DNA of 32,535 bases from a virus (Duplodnaviria > Heunggongvirae > Uroviricota > Caudoviricetes). The position numbers and the translations under genes are program-made. Below, piece after piece: positions 4,253 through 10,645 of the stretch. The notes beneath the pieces were generated by a model. The model was not told the origin of the DNA. It did not search any database and was given only the letters and a program-made list of their open reading frames with translations. Position 1 is the first letter of the stretch, and every line of letters starts with the position of its first letter. The stretch lies in IMG/VR virus record IMGVR_UViG_2541047835_000006. One strand, given 5' to 3'.

Positions 4253-4452
4253 GGGGCAATATCCTCTTCTGTACTGGCTTCTTCAGCCTCGATAACCGGA
4301 ATCAGTAACAACAGCCCGGAGGGCAGCACCGGCGTGATGGCCACGTGTGGATTGGCGGCAATTATCCGGGGATAGCCCAGCGGGTCGCCGTAGTACTGCC
4401 ATGCGAGAGAGTCCCAGCGCTCTCCGTCACGGGTGACATGTTCAAGAAACAT
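4240..4452 (-). CDS. Tail protein X-like (small LysM-like tail protein)
   Basis: about 70 aa; ATG at 4452 overlaps upstream stop (ATGA); positioned between U-like and D-like genes. Confidence 0.55.
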   Translation of the reverse strand: MFLEHVTRDGERWDSLAWQYYGDPLGYPRIIAANPHVAITPVLPSGLLLLIPVIEAEEASTEEDIAPWLR

Positions 4453-5336
4453 CACACACTCCTCGCCAGAATTTTGGCTGCCATGGTGCTTAACCCCGGC
4501 GACATACGGGTGAAGGTGGTGCTGGCGGAGTTAAGCTGCCCGGAAACGGCATCCAGCGCCGCTGCGATATTGCTGCCGTCCACGCCGCTCAGTGAAGACT
4601 GTGCCTGTTGTACATACGTGGCCGCATCACTGGTGGCTCTGGCCAGACTGATGGCATCAGGCATGGATTCAGAAAGCGCATTAAATGCCGGAACGCTTTG
4701 ACCCAACGCCCCGGACACGTTGCCCAGCCCGCTCATCAACCCCGGTACGCGGGTCAGTGCAACGGCGGGGTTATCCTTCATTTTCTGCGCCACCCGAACG
4801 GCACTGATGGTGGTCTGGAGAACAGACTGCGCCTGTTTGGCGTAGTTGACGCCGTCGCGGACGTACTGCGCTACCCCGGAAGGTGAAGGAACGGCACCGG
4901 AGACCGCCCCGACGCCGGGAACCTGCGTGCGTATTGCGGGTGGCTGTAGCGGGTTTTTCGGGTCGCCGATGTACTCCCGGAGAGACGCGGTGGCATTGAC
5001 GGCCAGCACGTTGCCGGTGCTGTCGGTCTGCTCGCTGGTCGCAGTAACATCGGTAATCACGAACCAGCCGCGATAGTCACCGTTGCCGAAGACCAGCGCC
5101 AGCGCTTGATGGGCCTTCATGGCCGTTCGCAGTCTCGCCAGCTCCACGTCGGGCACACAATAGTGCTGATGGAAGACCAGGCTTATCTGGATTTCGTCCA
5201 GCTTATCGCCAACGAACTGCAGGCCGGGCTTACCCTCGATACGGGGATGCTCCGCATAATCGACGCCGAACGTGACCTCGAAGCCGTCCCAGTAGGTAAT
5301 CAGTTCAAACTCAATATCACCCAATACTGCAAACAT
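4452..5336 (-). CDS. Tail protein, P2 gpU-like N-terminal domain with C-terminal extension
   Basis: 294 aa; N-terminus MFAVLGDIEFELITYWDGFEV... resembles gpU; ATG overlaps tape-measure stop (ATGA). Confidence 0.6.
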   Translation of the reverse strand: MFAVLGDIEFELITYWDGFEVTFGVDYAEHPRIEGKPGLQFVGDKLDEIQISLVFHQHYCVPDVELARLRTAMKAHQALALVFGNGDYRGWFVITDVTATSEQTDSTGNVLAVNATASLREYIGDPKNPLQPPAIRTQVPGVGAVSGAVPSPSGVAQYVRDGVNYAKQAQSVLQTTISAVRVAQKMKDNPAVALTRVPGLMSGLGNVSGALGQSVPAFNALSESMPDAISLARATSDAATYVQQAQSSLSGVDGSNIAAALDAVSGQLNSASTTFTRMSPGLSTMAAKILARSV

Positions 5337-7801
5337 CAGCTGTACCTCCTGCGTTGTTGCTGAGCCAGCAGACGCTCCAGCATTTTCTCCAGCTCATGCA
5401 GGCTCATATTCAGTGCGCCGGTCAACCCGTCAGGCGCTGCGGTTTCTTTGCCATTGAGGAAAAACTGAGGATTAAAGCTGACCTGGATACCGCCAGATGT
5501 TCCGCTGCCAGTTGCAGCTGCGCCACGACCTGAATATCCCGCCGCCATGATTTCCGGCGACGGGATACGGGGAACATCCGGTGTCATTTCAGTGGCCAGA
5601 CGCTGCCCGGCCAGTGCAGCAAGTGGTGTGGTGCGCTGCAGGCCGATAGCGGCCCCCTGCGCAATGTTGTCACCAAAGCCAATAAACACACGGCTCGGCG
5701 AATGAATGCCCAGCTTTTCCTTAAACCAGCCGCCAACACTGTCGCCCATGTCTGTGACGGTAGTTTTGAGCGACTCCCATTTGTTTTTGATGCCGTTTAT
5801 TAACCCGTCGATAAGATGGCCACCGAAGTCGGTGAACTTCGCTGGCAGATCAACACCGAGGTATTTCAGCGCAGCCGCAAAGGCTTTATAGAGCAGACCA
5901 ACCGGCGACCAGTTAATCAGCAGCTTACCAATCCCCACGACACCGCCATTAAACGCCTCTTTAATGTCAGCCCAGCGCTGTTTAAACCAGCTACTGACTG
6001 CGCCCCAGTTGCGATAAATAAGGTAAGCTGCTGCCGCGACGGCGGTGATGGCGAGACCAATGGGATTCATCAGCAGCGCCCGGCCAATCCAGAGAACGGC
6101 CCGCCCGGCGATCATAATGCCGCGAACCAGCCCACCTGACAGTACACCACCCAGTGTTCTGGCTCCTCTGGCGACGGCGCTGAAGCCGGTCACCAGCCAG
6201 CGGAGCTTACCGCCTTCACCGAGTGCAAGCGACAGTCGAAGCCAGTTGGCCCGCAGTAAAACGGCATTTTTCCAGACGTTAACAAAGGGGGAAATAAGGA
6301 GATTCAGCCCCAGCTTGAGACCGATAGTGGCCATCTTGAAAGCGAGTAATGCTCCTACAACCTTTATGGTGCCGCTGACGATTTGCGGGTTTGCCGCTAT
6401 CCATTTGCCGACACTGTCCATTAAAGGAATAAAAGTCTCACCCAGTTGGATCAAGGCCGGGCGTAGTGACTCACCAATGCTGATGGCTGCCTCGTTAAAA
6501 CCAATCTGAGTTCTGCGCCAACGACCTTCGAGCGTATTATTTTGTTTTGCAGCATCCTTATCCAGCGTAGACATTGCTGACGGGGTATTCATTTCCTGCT
6601 TGCTGGAAAGGTATTTATCCCAGCCCTGACGCATTGACAGTAAATGGTTAACGGTCTGAATATCAGTGAAGACTTCTGCCAGACCAAATGACTCCATTAG
6701 CTTCTGCTGGCCTTCCTGATCGCCTCTTGAGCCTGCTGCTTTCCATTGCTGTAAAAACGCCTTACCTTTACCGTCGATAAAACGGTTGGCAATCATCAGT
6801 GAGGCTTCATACTGTGAGAAGCCCTGAGCGACGTAATTCTGCATTGACCCCTGGTAATCCACCCCGGCTTTAGCATATTTCTGGATGGTATCTCCGCGCC
6901 CCATCGCCGCCAGCCAGTTTGACATATTGGTGACGGCCTCTTCCGCTGAGCCGCTGCCTTTACCAACTTCCAGACTGGCGACGATCTGGGTTATGGCATC
7001 TTTGCCGTAAATACCACGTGCAGCGAAGGCTTTGGCCATACCAGGTAACGCTTTCGCCATATCCTTCAGTTCAAACGAGCCTAGCTTAGCCCCGGTTGCC
7101 GCAATCCCAAACGCCTGCTCCAGCTCTTTCGCATCGGTAATTTTCAGCGCATCGCTAAAGGCGTAGGTCATTTTTGCGAGGTCAGTCATATCCGCTTTGG
7201 TGGCCGTGGCCGCTTTACCGAGCATCCCGGCAAATTTAGCTGCCTGCTCCGGGTTCATACCATCGGCAACTAACTGACCAACACCCCCTAGCAGCGACTC
7301 CTGGAGCTGATTGACCTGAAGGGATGCCCGACGAATGGCAGTACCGATGGCCTGTTCCTGCCTTGAATCCAGATCACCAGTGACACTGATATCCCGCAAC
7401 TGCGATTCAAACGAGGCATATTGTTTGACTGAGGCCATGACCGGTGCACCCAGTGTTCTGACGATGGCATAGGTTTCTGCTCCCTGGCCATAGAGCGCCA
7501 TGCGGTTAGCTTTCAGCGCGTCACTGGTGGTTGATACTGCTGACAAACGGCGCTGCTGGCGCTCAATTTGCTCCATTGTGCGGCTTACCCGCAGCAGGTC
7601 GCTGTTGAGGCGCTGCATCCGGGAAGAACCCAACTGACCATAGCGTTCTGTTGCACGGGTTAAGGCGTTTTGGCGTTCCTGCAGGCGGCGCGATGTATCG
7701 CCCAGGGAATCAAGGGCGCGTCGGGTACCGCTGACGGCTGAGCGGAAGCTGCTCCCGACAATGCCGCCAATAATGACGCCGACTGAAAATTTACTGGCCA
7801 C
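5336..7801 (-). CDS. Tail tape measure protein
   Basis: 821 aa, largest tail gene, Ala/Gly-rich with hydrophobic C-terminal segments; GTG start at 7801 preceded by AGAGGA SD. Confidence 0.85.
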   Translation of the reverse strand: MASKFSVGVIIGGIVGSSFRSAVSGTRRALDSLGDTSRRLQERQNALTRATERYGQLGSSRMQRLNSDLLRVSRTMEQIERQQRRLSAVSTTSDALKANRMALYGQGAETYAIVRTLGAPVMASVKQYASFESQLRDISVTGDLDSRQEQAIGTAIRRASLQVNQLQESLLGGVGQLVADGMNPEQAAKFAGMLGKAATATKADMTDLAKMTYAFSDALKITDAKELEQAFGIAATGAKLGSFELKDMAKALPGMAKAFAARGIYGKDAITQIVASLEVGKGSGSAEEAVTNMSNWLAAMGRGDTIQKYAKAGVDYQGSMQNYVAQGFSQYEASLMIANRFIDGKGKAFLQQWKAAGSRGDQEGQQKLMESFGLAEVFTDIQTVNHLLSMRQGWDKYLSSKQEMNTPSAMSTLDKDAAKQNNTLEGRWRRTQIGFNEAAISIGESLRPALIQLGETFIPLMDSVGKWIAANPQIVSGTIKVVGALLAFKMATIGLKLGLNLLISPFVNVWKNAVLLRANWLRLSLALGEGGKLRWLVTGFSAVARGARTLGGVLSGGLVRGIMIAGRAVLWIGRALLMNPIGLAITAVAAAAYLIYRNWGAVSSWFKQRWADIKEAFNGGVVGIGKLLINWSPVGLLYKAFAAALKYLGVDLPAKFTDFGGHLIDGLINGIKNKWESLKTTVTDMGDSVGGWFKEKLGIHSPSRVFIGFGDNIAQGAAIGLQRTTPLAALAGQRLATEMTPDVPRIPSPEIMAAGYSGRGAAATGSGTSGGIQVSFNPQFFLNGKETAAPDGLTGALNMSLHELEKMLERLLAQQQRRRYS

Positions 7802-7893
7802 GGTGGTTATCCTCTGAAAGCGGAAAAACGGAAGGAAAATGTCTGAGAGCCATGCAGAACAGCCGCGAGTAGCGGCTGTTAAGTGATGAGGTG

Positions 7894-8151
7894 TTAATGA
7901 TTATCGCCGAACTCGCTTCTGATTTGCTCTTCAGCCTGCTCCAGCCACATCTCCAGATCGTCAGTATCGAGGGCATCAATCTCCCCCGGCTGAAATCTAA
8001 ACCACCTCGCCAGCAGCCCCTGCGCCTGCATCAGCGTTTTCGTCGCTCTTGCCCAGCCCAGTGACTTGCTGAAATCGTTTCTGCAGCTCCATGTAGTCGG
8101 CAAGATCCATATTATCGAGGTCTTCCGGAAGAATACCGGTGCTACGGGCAA
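7894..8151 (-). CDS. Overlapping ORF in +1/-2 frame; candidate frameshift extension (E'-like) of the tail chaperone
   Basis: Part overlapping E looks like out-of-frame junk (R/W/C-rich) but the ~35 codons past the E stop are protein-like and acidic (PGEIDALDTDDLEMWLEQAEEQIRSEFGDNH); slippery site not identified. Confidence 0.4.
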   Translation of the reverse strand: MPVAPVFFRKTSIIWILPTTWSCRNDFSKSLGWARATKTLMQAQGLLARWFRFQPGEIDALDTDDLEMWLEQAEEQIRSEFGDNH

Positions 8152-8311
8152 TCAGCGGCTCGTCCCAGTCAGCCGGGTCTTTACTGATTTTGCGCACCTG
8201 CTTCAGGTCTTTGACCGTCAGGCGTTTCAGTTCAACCTGCTCAACTCTGGTGCCAGCAGCGGTGGTGAAGGGGTAAGACAGCTTAAAAGTATCGGATTGG
8301 GTTTGTGACAT
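7997..8311 (-). CDS. Tail assembly chaperone (P2 gpE-like)
   Basis: 104 aa, between tube and tape measure; LKRLTVKDLKQV and DNMDLADYMELQKRF segments resemble gpE. Confidence 0.6.
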   Translation of the reverse strand: MSQTQSDTFKLSYPFTTAAGTRVEQVELKRLTVKDLKQVRKISKDPADWDEPLIARSTGILPEDLDNMDLADYMELQKRFQQVTGLGKSDENADAGAGAAGEVV

Positions 8312-8378: not shown

Positions 8379-8403
8379 TAAGAAGAAAGGGGCCGAAGCC
8401 CCT
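8379..8403 (-). terminator. Intrinsic terminator-like hairpin with U-tract on minus strand
   Basis: Minus-strand AGGGGC-TTCG-GCCCCT followed by TTTCTTCTT, starting 6 nt after the stop of the 8410..8694 ORF. Confidence 0.5.
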
Positions 8404-8409
8404 GTGATA

Positions 8410-8694
8410 TCAGTGAGTGCGAAAGCCTTTGCAGTTACGCAGGAAGGCGATAAGAAGTACCTTTCCTTCAGATTTGCCGATGCCGGTGAACCAGTGGTCA
8501 GGTGGCTCCCATGCCTCAATCAGGTCAGCGAGCTTTCGTGCTTTGGAGCGTGTGCAGTCAATCGGGTCATTGGTTTTCTGGGTATTAAAAAGGTTTTCCA
8601 CCCCTGAAATATCAAGGATGGTAAACCACGTACCATTCCCCATCATGCCAATCGAACCACAGTTCCCGCCTTTATCTTCAATCTCGACGGTCAC
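8410..8694 (-). CDS. Hypothetical protein (moron inserted between tail tube and tail chaperone genes)
   Basis: 94-codon ORF with GTG start; visibly lower GC than flanking tail genes; own downstream terminator; no recognised motif. Confidence 0.4.
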   Translation of the reverse strand: MTVEIEDKGGNCGSIGMMGNGTWFTILDISGVENLFNTQKTNDPIDCTRSKARKLADLIEAWEPPDHWFTGIGKSEGKVLLIAFLRNCKGFRTH

Positions 8695-8696
8695 CG

Positions 8697-9218
8697 TCAG
8701 CCCCCGATGTTGATGCGGTAGTCGGTCAACTGGTCAATGCCGCCGACGCGGAAGATGTTGGCCAGATAGTCCAGCTCCAGCAACTCTTCACCATCCAGTA
8801 CCTGCTTGATGTACGTGCAGGTGAAGCTACTGGAGAACTCGGCGTTCTCATGCTGTTTGAACGTCCCCAGCGGGTTCTTCTTAAACATGATCGTCAGGAA
8901 AGTGACCAGCGGAATTTCGTCAATCAGCCCCTGCGAGCTGTAGCGCTGAACGCTGGAACGGCACTGCAGCGCCAGCGACTTATACGGGTTCGCGGCAGAC
9001 AGCATCGCGTCGCGGTAAAAGCTGTTCCACTTGATCTCGCCCTCAAGCTTGTCGAAGCCAGCAGGGAGTTCCACCTTGCCCACCATCCCCAACGCCTTAT
9101 GCTCCTGCATGGTCATGGAGACGTCAGGCAGTTTGACCTCCTCGGCCCGGCCCAGCAGGTTAGCGCCATCCAAGTAGATGTTGGCATTCGTGATGCGGTT
9201 GATCTCAATCTTTGCCAT
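8697..9218 (-). CDS. Tail tube protein (FII / Mu M-like)
   Basis: 173 aa; C-terminus ...ANIFRVGGIDQLTDYRINIGG resembles P2 FII C-terminus; ATG overlaps sheath stop (ATGA). Confidence 0.8.
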   Translation of the reverse strand: MAKIEINRITNANIYLDGANLLGRAEEVKLPDVSMTMQEHKALGMVGKVELPAGFDKLEGEIKWNSFYRDAMLSAANPYKSLALQCRSSVQRYSSQGLIDEIPLVTFLTIMFKKNPLGTFKQHENAEFSSSFTCTYIKQVLDGEELLELDYLANIFRVGGIDQLTDYRINIGG

Positions 9219-10645
9219 CAGCTATTCCCCTTCAGGGTTAACAGGTATTCCGAGGTGATCTCGGTCTCAAACGTCAGTCGCTCCAGCGGCGGTGGCGGCG
9301 TGTATTTGTAGCTCAGCAACAGATGACCGGCGGCCAGCTCCGTCTCTTCATTACGGGCCGGATCAAACCAGCAACTGAAGCCCAGCAGTGCACCGTCGCC
9401 AATTAGCTTGCGACCGTAGGCGTTGACCGACTCCGTCAGCGCATCAATCAGTGCCTGGGTAATCGGCATGTCGATGTACTGCTGGCTGAAATAACGCAGG
9501 GACTCGTTGATAACATCACCGGTGCGGCGAACGTTCTCAAAGTTGCGCATATGGGTGACCGTTGGCCATGCTGCCGTCCGGTTGCCCCACAGACGCAGGC
9601 CGCTGCCGTAGCTGCTGAAGACCGTAGTGATGCCCTGTTCGTTGAGCAGGTTCACCTCGCTCTGCGGGTCATCAATCATTGCCGACAGCTGGCGCTCCAC
9701 GCCGGTGATACCCAGAATCTCCTGGTTGGAGGACGACCACCAGTAGCCCTTGTCCAGGTCGACCTTGGCACGCAGACCTGCAGCACGTTGGCTCAGCGGC
9801 TCCAGCCGTTCGCTGTTGGTGGCCGCGTCGTACACCTTGACGTGCGGATAGCACAGACGGACGCGGTCGGAGCTGGTATTGAAGTTAATGGTGCCTTCCG
9901 GGCCACGCCCCGCCAGAGCCTGCGCAAAAGTGGTACCAATCGGCGCGTCGATGTAGGTCACCGCGCCCAGCTTCTCAGCCATGGCGATAAGCTCAACCGA
10001 GACGCTGTTCTGGGTGCAGAATACCGGGGCAATCAGAATTTTGGCGAAGTAGCCAAACAGGTTGAAGCTGTCGTTAAGCAGCTTCATGCCGGTACGGTTG
10101 CCTGCCGCGTTAACGGTACCGATGATATCAGCCGGGGTGACTTTGGTCGGATCGGCATAGTTATAGCTGGCCTTCACCGTTGCATCTGCAGCAATGCTTT
10201 TACCAAGGTTAGTAATCACCCCGGTCTGCGCATCAAGCGAGTAGTCCTGACCTTCCACATAAGGCTGACCGTCGCTGTCCGGTTTCAGTACCAGCTGCGC
10301 GATCACCGGATTAGCCAGCTGTGCCTTGCCCGTCGCCTTGTCGAATGTTACGTCTTCATCGGCCACAGCGGTTTTATGCACAGCCGGATCAAGCACGTTA
10401 ATGACCAGAACGGTGCCTGCCCCATGGTCGTAGATCGCATCCAGTGCCTGCGGAATGGTAAAGCCAGTGAGCTGGCTGCCAAACGCCGCTGCATCTTTCT
10501 CAGACAGGCACTGCACCAGCGTATTGACGTCTCCCATTGGGGCGGTACCAATCAGGCCAATGACGGCGGATTTCACCGTTTTAACCGGGCGGGCACCGTT
10601 TTCCACCTCAATGGTTTCGACGCCATGCAGATAGTTAGCTGACAT
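9218..10645 (-). CDS. Contractile tail sheath protein
   Basis: 475 aa, immediately upstream of tube gene; GGAGG SD before ATG 10645. Confidence 0.85.
   Translation of the reverse strand: MSANYLHGVETIEVENGARPVKTVKSAVIGLIGTAPMGDVNTLVQCLSEKDAAAFGSQLTGFTIPQALDAIYDHGAGTVLVINVLDPAVHKTAVADEDVTFDKATGKAQLANPVIAQLVLKPDSDGQPYVEGQDYSLDAQTGVITNLGKSIAADATVKASYNYADPTKVTPADIIGTVNAAGNRTGMKLLNDSFNLFGYFAKILIAPVFCTQNSVSVELIAMAEKLGAVTYIDAPIGTTFAQALAGRGPEGTINFNTSSDRVRLCYPHVKVYDAATNSERLEPLSQRAAGLRAKVDLDKGYWWSSSNQEILGITGVERQLSAMIDDPQSEVNLLNEQGITTVFSSYGSGLRLWGNRTAAWPTVTHMRNFENVRRTGDVINESLRYFSQQYIDMPITQALIDALTESVNAYGRKLIGDGALLGFSCWFDPARNEETELAAGHLLLSYKYTPPPPLERLTFETEITSEYLLTLKGNS

Follow-up and report, generated by a model that had tools for sequence, protein, structure and literature searches.

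How is the longer form of a phage tail assembly chaperone made when its extension lies in a reading frame other than the one entered by a -1 frameshift? This question is raised by a 32,535-nucleotide (nt) stretch of viral DNA (Duplodnaviria; Heunggongvirae; Uroviricota; Caudoviricetes; IMG/VR record IMGVR_UViG_2541047835_000006), referred to here at its full length as the window. Within it, an E-like tail assembly chaperone gene (7997..8311, minus strand) is overlapped and followed by an extension, E′, in the +1 (equivalently -2) frame. Tail chaperone frameshifting is textbook recoding that is nearly always described and annotated as -1. Shifts of -1, -2, or +1 have been recorded, depending on the phage (PMC5009743). 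For the locus described here, the longer chaperone is probably made through a +1 slip of tRNA-Phe, from UUU to UUC, at Phe codon 80 of the E-like gene, which would give a 138-amino-acid (aa) E+E′ protein. The homology of E′, its frame, the conservation of UUU_C, the interval limited by stop codons, and a switch in selection at the site were all computed in the present analysis.

Reading frame and homology of the extension

According to the list of open reading frames (ORFs) and the translation, the zero-frame product of the E-like gene is a protein of 104 aa, which is presumably the major product of the locus. The gene has an AGGAG ribosome-binding site 8 nt 5′ of its start and ends in GUG GUU UAG, with the UAG stop at 7999-7997 on the minus strand. 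Residues 8-84 of the protein match the Pfam family PF10109 (Phage_TAC_7; E 6.8e-23, 80.9 bits against a cut-off of 25), the description of which reads ‘E, or 41 or 14’. In E. coli DNA that is 99.8% identical, the Prokaryotic Genome Annotation Pipeline (PGAP) gives the name ‘phage tail assembly protein’. A search of NCBIfam returned zero matches.

From ~8160 the +1 frame runs open until a UAA at 7896-7894, 103 nt beyond the E stop, and the distal part of this ORF is acidic (EIDALDTDDLEMWLEQAEEQIRSEFGDNH). The -1 frame is junk-like and is closed by a stop 11 codons ahead of the E stop. No X_XXY_YYZ heptamer was found in the E/E′ overlap, and the window pair is without the kind of motif (U_UUU_UUG in P2) on which a P2-type -1 frameshift takes place. 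An earlier note on this DNA, made from the sequence alone, had described these same features: a protein-like, acidic tail whose frame is +1/-2 and not the canonical -1, a junk-like -1 frame, and no identifiable slippery heptamer. The frame translations and the inspection of the overlap agree with it on each of them. The note had also placed a tail chaperone pair between the tube and tape measure genes, and the matches to PF10109, PF04985, and PF10145, together with the gene order, confirm this placement.

Judged by its sequence matches, the +1 ORF is a true homologue of the P2 E′ extension and not a chance ORF. The E′ coding segment (7894..8070, minus strand) consists of 58 codons, S81 to H138, followed by the UAA, and includes a conserved core, LARWFRFQPGEIDALDTDDLEMWLEQAEEQ (7924..8013, minus strand), that is homologous to the P2 extension. 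Comparison of the E′ alignment profile with P2 E′ by hhalign gave a probability of 96.3% and an E value of 1.9e-9. The Pfam family PF06528 (Phage_P2_GpE) weakly matches residues 100-129 of the predicted fusion (E 0.016, below the cut-off); single sequences score 13-17 bits with this family against a cut-off of 23, and it is touched by six of nine predicted fusion proteins. In relatives where E′ is called at all, the name given by PGAP is ‘GpE family phage tail protein’.

Conservation of the frame among related phages

A set of 172 related loci was assembled from phage records, GTDB genomes, and IMG/VR, and E and E′ were placed in these by hidden Markov models in all forward frames. E′ occupies the +1 frame in 168 loci and the -1 frame in two others (Pasteurella phage AFS-2018a and L081), and the remaining two (L022 and L169) have E and E′ fused in frame through single-base indels. 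A second, independent sample consisted of 80 metagenome loci that were fetched via the E′ peptide and not via E, and E′ is in the +1 frame in 78 of them. The clade with the +1 arrangement covers Escherichia, Salmonella, Klebsiella, Pantoea, Ralstonia, Pseudomonas, and Burkholderia. Such recurrence, across the clade and across both samples, shows that the non-canonical frame is an old, selected feature and no accident of the window.

Fused forms of the two genes take different guises. In L022 (Apirhabdus apintestini CP138906, a complete chromosome, ~1700), an indel four codons before the conserved Phe fuses E to E′ (…ADYLGCRPDFKKSQGW…); the fusion may have arisen naturally as a pre-fused variant, may reflect decay of the prophage, or may be an error of assembly. 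Fusion by single-base indels is also seen in a number of 138-aa database proteins (P0007, P0012, P0030, P0047, and P0110; L169; L174-L179). More than one homopolymer is affected by the indels in these proteins (a G5 run and GGG, among others), and the contigs that bear P0012 are short, with tape measure genes that are also fragmented. These database proteins are most likely the result of sequencing errors.

Locating the shift site

The earlier note proposed that the shift might occur at the E stop codon, within GUU UAG A, but comparison with relatives does not uphold this. The position of the E stop varies among them from 27 nt to >90 nt after the Phe codon, and the conserved stop that marks a site of the release factor 2 (RF2) type is not found. 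Close relatives read seven codons past the window’s E stop (a 111-aa form, ...GEMVPVSAGGD*), and much earlier stops are present, for example, in L138 (‘...GMGESN*’), in L032 (‘...MLSMAA*’), and in phages of the Bise type (‘...LWLPRAS*’), all of them upstream of the conserved E′ core LLARWFRFQP. A shift at the window’s stop position is impossible in the phages with such early stops. A shift at GUU UAG would also drop the most conserved E′ residues, LLARWF, which are encoded 5′ of the stop, and re-pairing of tRNA-Val from GUU to UUU fails at the first codon position. With a mobile E stop, and with constraint on the +1 frame beginning well upstream of it, GUU UAG (7997..8002, minus strand) was rejected as the shift site.

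Stop codons in the two frames limit where a shift site common to all of these phages could lie. In Ralstonia and Komp-type phages the last +1-frame stop is 8 nt before the conserved Phe codon, and the earliest zero-frame stops are 27-33 nt after it (L032, Bise type, and L138). The intersection of these limits confines a common site to ~40 nt, from 8 nt upstream to 27-30 nt downstream of the Phe codon. For the -2 shift that the earlier note offered as an alternative, this interval holds no site at which a tRNA could re-pair two bases back. Comparison with related phages, which the note had suggested as a check, thus supports a recoded extension in the +1 frame, argues against the stop codon as its site, and points instead to a UUU_C located 25 codons upstream.

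Two further motifs were considered and set aside. A G5 run, CCGGGGGAG (~7986-7978), was examined as a Mu-like site; it is absent outside the E. coli-type clade and lies after the E stop in the window. Several of the 138-aa database proteins are fused at this run, and they come from short Logan contigs with fragmented tape measure genes, which indicates homopolymer errors. A GAAAAC motif is common to the window and a Ralstonia phage, in different phases, and its occurrence in both is therefore coincidental.

A conserved UUU_C and a switch in selection

The sequence TTT followed by C is invariant in all 168 of the +1-type loci and in 77 of 77 scored metagenome loci (245 in all), and it is the sole invariant element inside the stop-limited interval. 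In the window this is the proposed shift site, UUU_C (8071..8074, minus strand), which comprises Phe codon 80 (8074-8072) and C8071. A zero-frame UUU is followed here by a pyrimidine, as is needed for re-pairing, and Phe is read in either frame: as UUU in the zero frame and as UUC in the +1 frame. All 161 loci scored have a +1 frame that stays open between the Phe codon and the E′ stop.

Codon usage makes this invariance difficult to attribute to chance. In the long ORFs of the loci themselves, the share of TTT among Phe codons is 0.50 in enteric loci and 0.21-0.22 where the GC content is >56%. If clusters defined by amino acid identity are treated as independent, the chance of finding TTT in every cluster is ~1e-5 for nine clusters (70% identity) and ~1e-9 for 17 clusters (80% identity). 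The third base of the Phe codon is constant within each of six clades, and other nearby two-fold degenerate codons vary.

Selection on the two frames was followed by an entropy scan, in which 59 distinct E. coli-type sequences were aligned and the mean column entropy was calculated for each zero-frame codon phase. Over codons -40 to -1 relative to Phe80, the values for phases 1, 2, and 3 are 0.25, 0.10, and 0.70, which is ordinary zero-frame wobble. They become 0.58, 0.18, and 0.41 over codons +1 to +12, 0.46, 0.13, and 0.12 over codons +12 to +24, and 0.34, 0.07, and 0.02 over codons +24 to +40. Phase 1 of the zero frame is the wobble position of the +1 frame. Since the wobble signal moves to this phase, purifying selection on the +1 frame sets in directly after Phe80, ~25 codons before the E stop is reached; beyond Phe80, the part of E read in the zero frame is essentially unconstrained. 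Within the stretch CAG AAA CGA UUU CAG, synonymous-site entropy is 0.12, 0.48, 0.12, 0.00, and 0.12 for the successive codons, compared with ~0.9 in their neighbours, which points to constraint at the level of the nucleotides.

The CGA codon and other possible stimulators

Directly 5′ of UUU in the window is the rare codon CGA (Arg79; 8075..8077, minus strand), a candidate for a clade-specific stimulator. It precedes UUU in 135 of the 136 loci of the E. coli, Salmonella, and Ralstonia types and accounts for ~7% of Arg codons in flanking enteric genes. Its synonymous-site entropy is 0-0.18, compared with ~0.7-1.0 for adjacent codons. CGA is decoded through an I:A wobble pair. Two yeast studies reportedly link this codon to stalling and +1 frameshifting (PMC6301793; bioRxiv 10.1101/755652). 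A CGA placed 5′ of UUU is likely to raise the frequency of the shift in the enteric and Ralstonia-type clades.

A CGA is also present beside the -2 site of phage Mu, CGG GGG CGA (L009, AF083977, 1930-1945), where it directly follows the G run; in the window clade it directly precedes UUU_C. The codon may be a pause element that is common to Mu and the window clade. A bolder proposal is that CGA_UUU_C forms a compact bacterial +1 cassette that is independent of structure, in which the I:A wobble of tRNA-Arg(ICG) on CGA would destabilise frame keeping and tRNA-Phe would pair with UUC. It would be a counterpart of CGA-induced +1 shifting in yeast and of the PA-X site of influenza, and one chaperone family would have switched among -1 (U_UUU_UUG), -2 (a G run with CGA), and +1 (CGA_UUU_C) shifting at almost one spot. 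This is put forward tentatively, as an idea that is possible but on balance doubtful.

Other candidates for stimulators were rejected. The window folds into a long imperfect hairpin right 3′ of UUUC, with a z-score of only -1.6, and RNAalifold analysis of 17 E. coli-type sequences gave -6.8 kcal/mol with a covariation term of -0.03. With a weak z-score, folds that differ between clades, and no covariation, downstream RNA structure was not retained. The motif GAGGUG, considered as a Shine-Dalgarno (SD)-like stimulator, adjoins UUU in the Komp clade only and is not general.

Proposed mechanism and product

We envisage that most ribosomes would translate the zero frame to give the 104-aa E protein, with a minority shifting to the +1 frame at Phe codon 80. 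There, within CGA UUU C (8077-8071, minus strand), the peptidyl-tRNA-Phe with the anticodon GAA would quit its G:U wobble on UUU and re-pair with the overlapping UUC; alternatively, tRNA-Phe could bind UUC directly. In E. coli, tRNA-Phe with the anticodon GAA forms a G:U wobble on UUU and a G:C pair on UUC. A +1 move on UUU_C improves the pairing, because G:U is replaced by G:C. Sites of the form UUU_Ynn are especially prone to +1 frameshifting in bacteria (PMC5009743).

After the slip, AGC would be read next and the +1 frame would be followed for 58 codons. The predicted E+E′ protein, join(8311..8072, 8070..7894), would be 138 aa in length, compared with 142 aa for P2 E+E′, and would have the sequence ...ELQKRF-SKSLGWARATKTLMQAQGLLARWFRFQPGEIDALDTDDLEMWLEQAEEQIRSEFGDNH, with a C-terminal domain homologous to P2 E′. 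If lambda G/GT is a guide, the common N-terminal domain may bind the tape measure protein and the extension may recruit the tube subunit, and the two chaperone forms would be required at a set ratio. The occurrence of the slip, how efficient it is, the part played by CGA, and what the proteins do are what we infer from the sequence comparisons.

Weighing the evidence and alternative explanations

Several observations weigh against a programmed slip at UUU_C. In-frame UUU_C is common, with 44 cases in the window’s long ORFs and a share of ~8% of Phe codons in related loci, so the tetranucleotide alone does not account for shifting at a programmed level. The family conserves the Phe residue itself, which confines the signal to the choice of codon and the C that follows, and this C is in part forced, the next residue being Q, L, or R. 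CGA is specific to certain clades and is replaced elsewhere by GUG, UCC, GCC, or GCA. No universal stimulator was found among the A-site codon, SD-like elements, and downstream structure: CAG, which occupies the A site in the zero frame, is a common codon; no SD-like element is present at the site with RF2-like spacing; and no conserved 3′ RNA structure was detected, the folds differing from clade to clade. The argument from intersecting stop codons presupposes one homologous shift position in all clades. To these can be added the precedent of Mu gp41, which belongs to the same wider family (a weak PF10109 match) and for which a verified -2 shift into this same frame has been described.

The near invariance of CGA, together with its rarity, could be read as the mark of a Ty3-like +1 shift one codon earlier, in which the slow CGA occupies the A site and tRNA-Asp is accommodated on the overlapping GAU, giving ...QK-D-F-SKS... 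and not ...QK-R-F-SKS.... The +1 frame does read x-D-F in the E. coli-, Salmonella-, and Ralstonia-type clades, and the verified -2 site of Mu also has CGA as its next codon. Such a shift is nevertheless unlikely, as the BcepMu, Komp, and Bise clades have no CGA and yet have UUU_C and a +1-frame E′; what is conserved universally is UUU_C and not CGA, and the P-site codon before CGA is variable, with no sign of special peptidyl-tRNAs. A frameshift would be dispensed with altogether if E′ were made alone from an internal AUG at 8031, as a 45-aa protein (MQAQGLLARWF...; 7894..8031, minus strand). PGAP annotates this ORF in some relatives, NZ_CP183117 among them, but not in NZ_CP060065, and although 82 of 112 distinct sequences have an ATG within the +1 ORF, 5′ of the core, a start codon with an SD-like motif is found in only 12 of the 112. 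No SD-like sequence precedes the AUG of the window, and several clades have no start codon there (among them the PhiKM type, which reads ALTQAQ, and the Ralstonia type). Independent initiation would leave the invariance of UUU_C and CGA unexplained, and the homologous segment of P2 is made only as a fusion, which renders this explanation rather improbable.

The precedent of Mu would extend to the window if a -2 shift took place somewhere in the E/E′ overlap, reaching the same frame with one added residue. The frame arithmetic of the earlier note permits this, and the extension does lie in the +1/-2 frame, but the allowed interval contains no conserved run or repeat for re-pairing two bases back. 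A -2 move on CGA UUU C would bring tRNA-Phe to GAU, and the G5 run is limited to the E. coli-type clade and is past the E stop in the window. We consider a -2 shift distinctly improbable. An RF2-like +1 shift at the E stop, with the predicted junction ...LQKRFSKSLGWAR, could be aided by the SD-like GAGGUG just upstream, since GAG GUG GUU UAG A is indeed present and GAGGUG matches the 3′ part of the SD consensus. The GAGGUGG string is, however, accounted for by the R-W codons of the +1 frame, and movement from GUU to UUU needs a mismatch at the first position. With a stop that is not conserved and is upstream of the E′ core in several relatives, and with LLARWF lost from the product, this explanation is very improbable. 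Least credible is that the +1 ORF is a relic that goes unexpressed, or that the arrangement is a sequencing artefact. Some database entries do have E and E′ fused by single-base indels, but these are on short, error-ridden contigs with fragmented tape measure genes, whereas the separate arrangement is found in hundreds of independent genomes, including 637 complete E. coli genomes, and the +1 frame is under strong purifying selection.

Gene context

The chaperone pair sits between the tail tube gene upstream (8697..9218, minus strand; PF04985 Phage_tube, E 4.8e-54) and the tape measure gene downstream (5336..7801, minus strand; PF10145, E 8.3e-16; ‘phage tail tape measure protein’ in PGAP), which is the placement expected of a pair of the P2 E/E+E′ type. 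A sheath gene (9218-10645, minus strand) is a further neighbour in the tail module, and a gpU-like gene (PF06995) is located at 4452-5336 on the minus strand. Burkholderia phage BcepMu has this gene order too, and the nearest phage records are Escherichia phages Phi06_2974 B and PhiKM, which are filed under Bcepmuvirus, and Klebsiella phage KP12. The tail module carried by the window belongs to a BcepMu-like (Bcepmuvirus-type) prophage of Enterobacteriaceae, and 637 of 5426 complete E. coli genomes contain DNA with an identity of at least 80% to this segment.

Other features of the module were noted. The gpU-like protein is 294 aa long, as is BcepMu gp45. Its match to the P2 GpU domain is confined to the first ~123 residues, and the C-terminal half, rich in Ala and Ser, is without a match. 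Inside the tail operon, a terminator-like hairpin, AGGGGCTTCGGCCCCT followed by TTCTTCTT, is located at 8388-8403 (minus strand), where it separates the E start from a small ORF of 93-94 aa (8410-8694). This ORF has only a weak DUF7739 match, is hypothetical in relatives, and is absent from BcepMu; together with the hairpin it looks like a moron-type insert that carries its own terminator. A perfect 9-bp inverted repeat, AACAGCCGC-TACTC-GCGGCTGTT (7858-7880, minus strand), is found within the 92-nt gap between the E′ stop and the tape measure start, with no T-run after it.

Annotation and significance

Public annotations are at odds with this reading, under which the locus is consistently mis-annotated. 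In the BcepMu record (L010, AY539836, 4603-5364), the label of lambda G analogue is given to gp42, which is the +1-frame ORF, and gp43 is presented as the T analogue, extending gp42 through a -1 shift. By homology, gp41 would be the E/G analogue and the C-terminal part of gp42 would be E′, so the published assignment looks wrong. PGAP calls a separate 45-aa E′ in some E. coli genomes (L001, 1890-2027) and none in others that are >96% identical (L002), and it never annotates a frameshifted E/E′ fusion.

The production of two forms of tail chaperone by recoding, including +1 cases, is known, as is the slippery motif itself. An earlier description of a +1 site in BcepMu-like phages was not found in the literature searched, and the assignment of a conserved UUU_C, often as CGA_UUU_C, to their E/E′ pair appears to be new. 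A defined UUU_C site, with CGA in many members, provides a feature for annotators to look for. If the proposal is correct, the E/E′ pair would be a natural bacterial case of +1 frameshifting on UUU_C without a stop codon, and would illustrate how the direction of a programmed frameshift can change in evolution while the gene pair and the approximate site persist. The clade concerned is widespread, with Salmonella, Klebsiella, Pantoea, Ralstonia, Pseudomonas, and Burkholderia represented alongside the E. coli genomes counted above.

Comparison with known recoding systems

The closest parallel to the window pair is E/E+E′ of P2. The N-terminal domain (PF10109) and the extension (hhalign E 1.9e-9) are both homologous to their counterparts in the window, the pair lies between the tube (FII) and tape measure (T) genes, and the longer products are similar in length (142 aa in P2 and 138 aa here). 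The P2 slip and the one proposed for the window both fall on a Phe codon where the PF10109 domain reaches its C-terminal edge, the P2 site being three profile positions from that of the window. The systems differ in that P2 uses a -1 slip of two tRNAs on the heptamer U_UUU_UUG (G GUU UUU UG), whereas the window has a closed -1 frame and a UUU_C that would direct a +1 slip. In L081, a relative of the -1 type, the slip is on a Phe run, U_UUU_UUC, at nearly the position of the window site.

For gp41 and its extension in phage Mu, Xu and colleagues reportedly verified a -2 frameshift in 2004. Mu resembles the window in the role, the position, and the relative frame of the pair (+1 being equivalent to -2), in a weak PF10109 match, and in having CGA beside the slip site. 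It differs in that the slip is of two bases back on a G run (CGG GGG CGA), ~25 codons past its own Phe codon (UUC). The window clade has no such G run in the allowed interval, and thus no homopolymer run of the Mu kind, and the Mu extension is without evident similarity to the window E′. The likeness to lambda G/GT is in the shared N-terminus, a fixed ratio set by recoding, and genes placed just before the tape measure gene (PMC5009743). Lambda shifts by -1 at G_GGA_AAG and has a non-contractile tail, and it is compared here by general logic and not by sequence.

Two further systems resemble the proposed slip itself. Expression of RF2 (prfB, CUU_UGA_C) also involves a bacterial +1 slip in the P site onto a UUY codon, but requires a zero-frame stop in the A site and an SD element 3 nt upstream, neither of which is conserved in the window clade. 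More similar are the UUU_Ynn sites of Yersinia YopN-TyeA, influenza A PA-X, and amalgavirus (UUU_CGN), at which tRNA-Phe shifts its pairing from UUU to UUC without the involvement of a stop codon. The PA-X cassette is UCC_UUU_CGU (PMC5009743), and the BcepMu site, UCC UUU CGC, is nearly the same. These sites are in unrelated genes, and PA-X has a rare Arg codon in the A site where the window clade usually has CAG or CUG. The flank that distinguishes the window-type site from these UUU_Ynn cases is its 5′ CGA.

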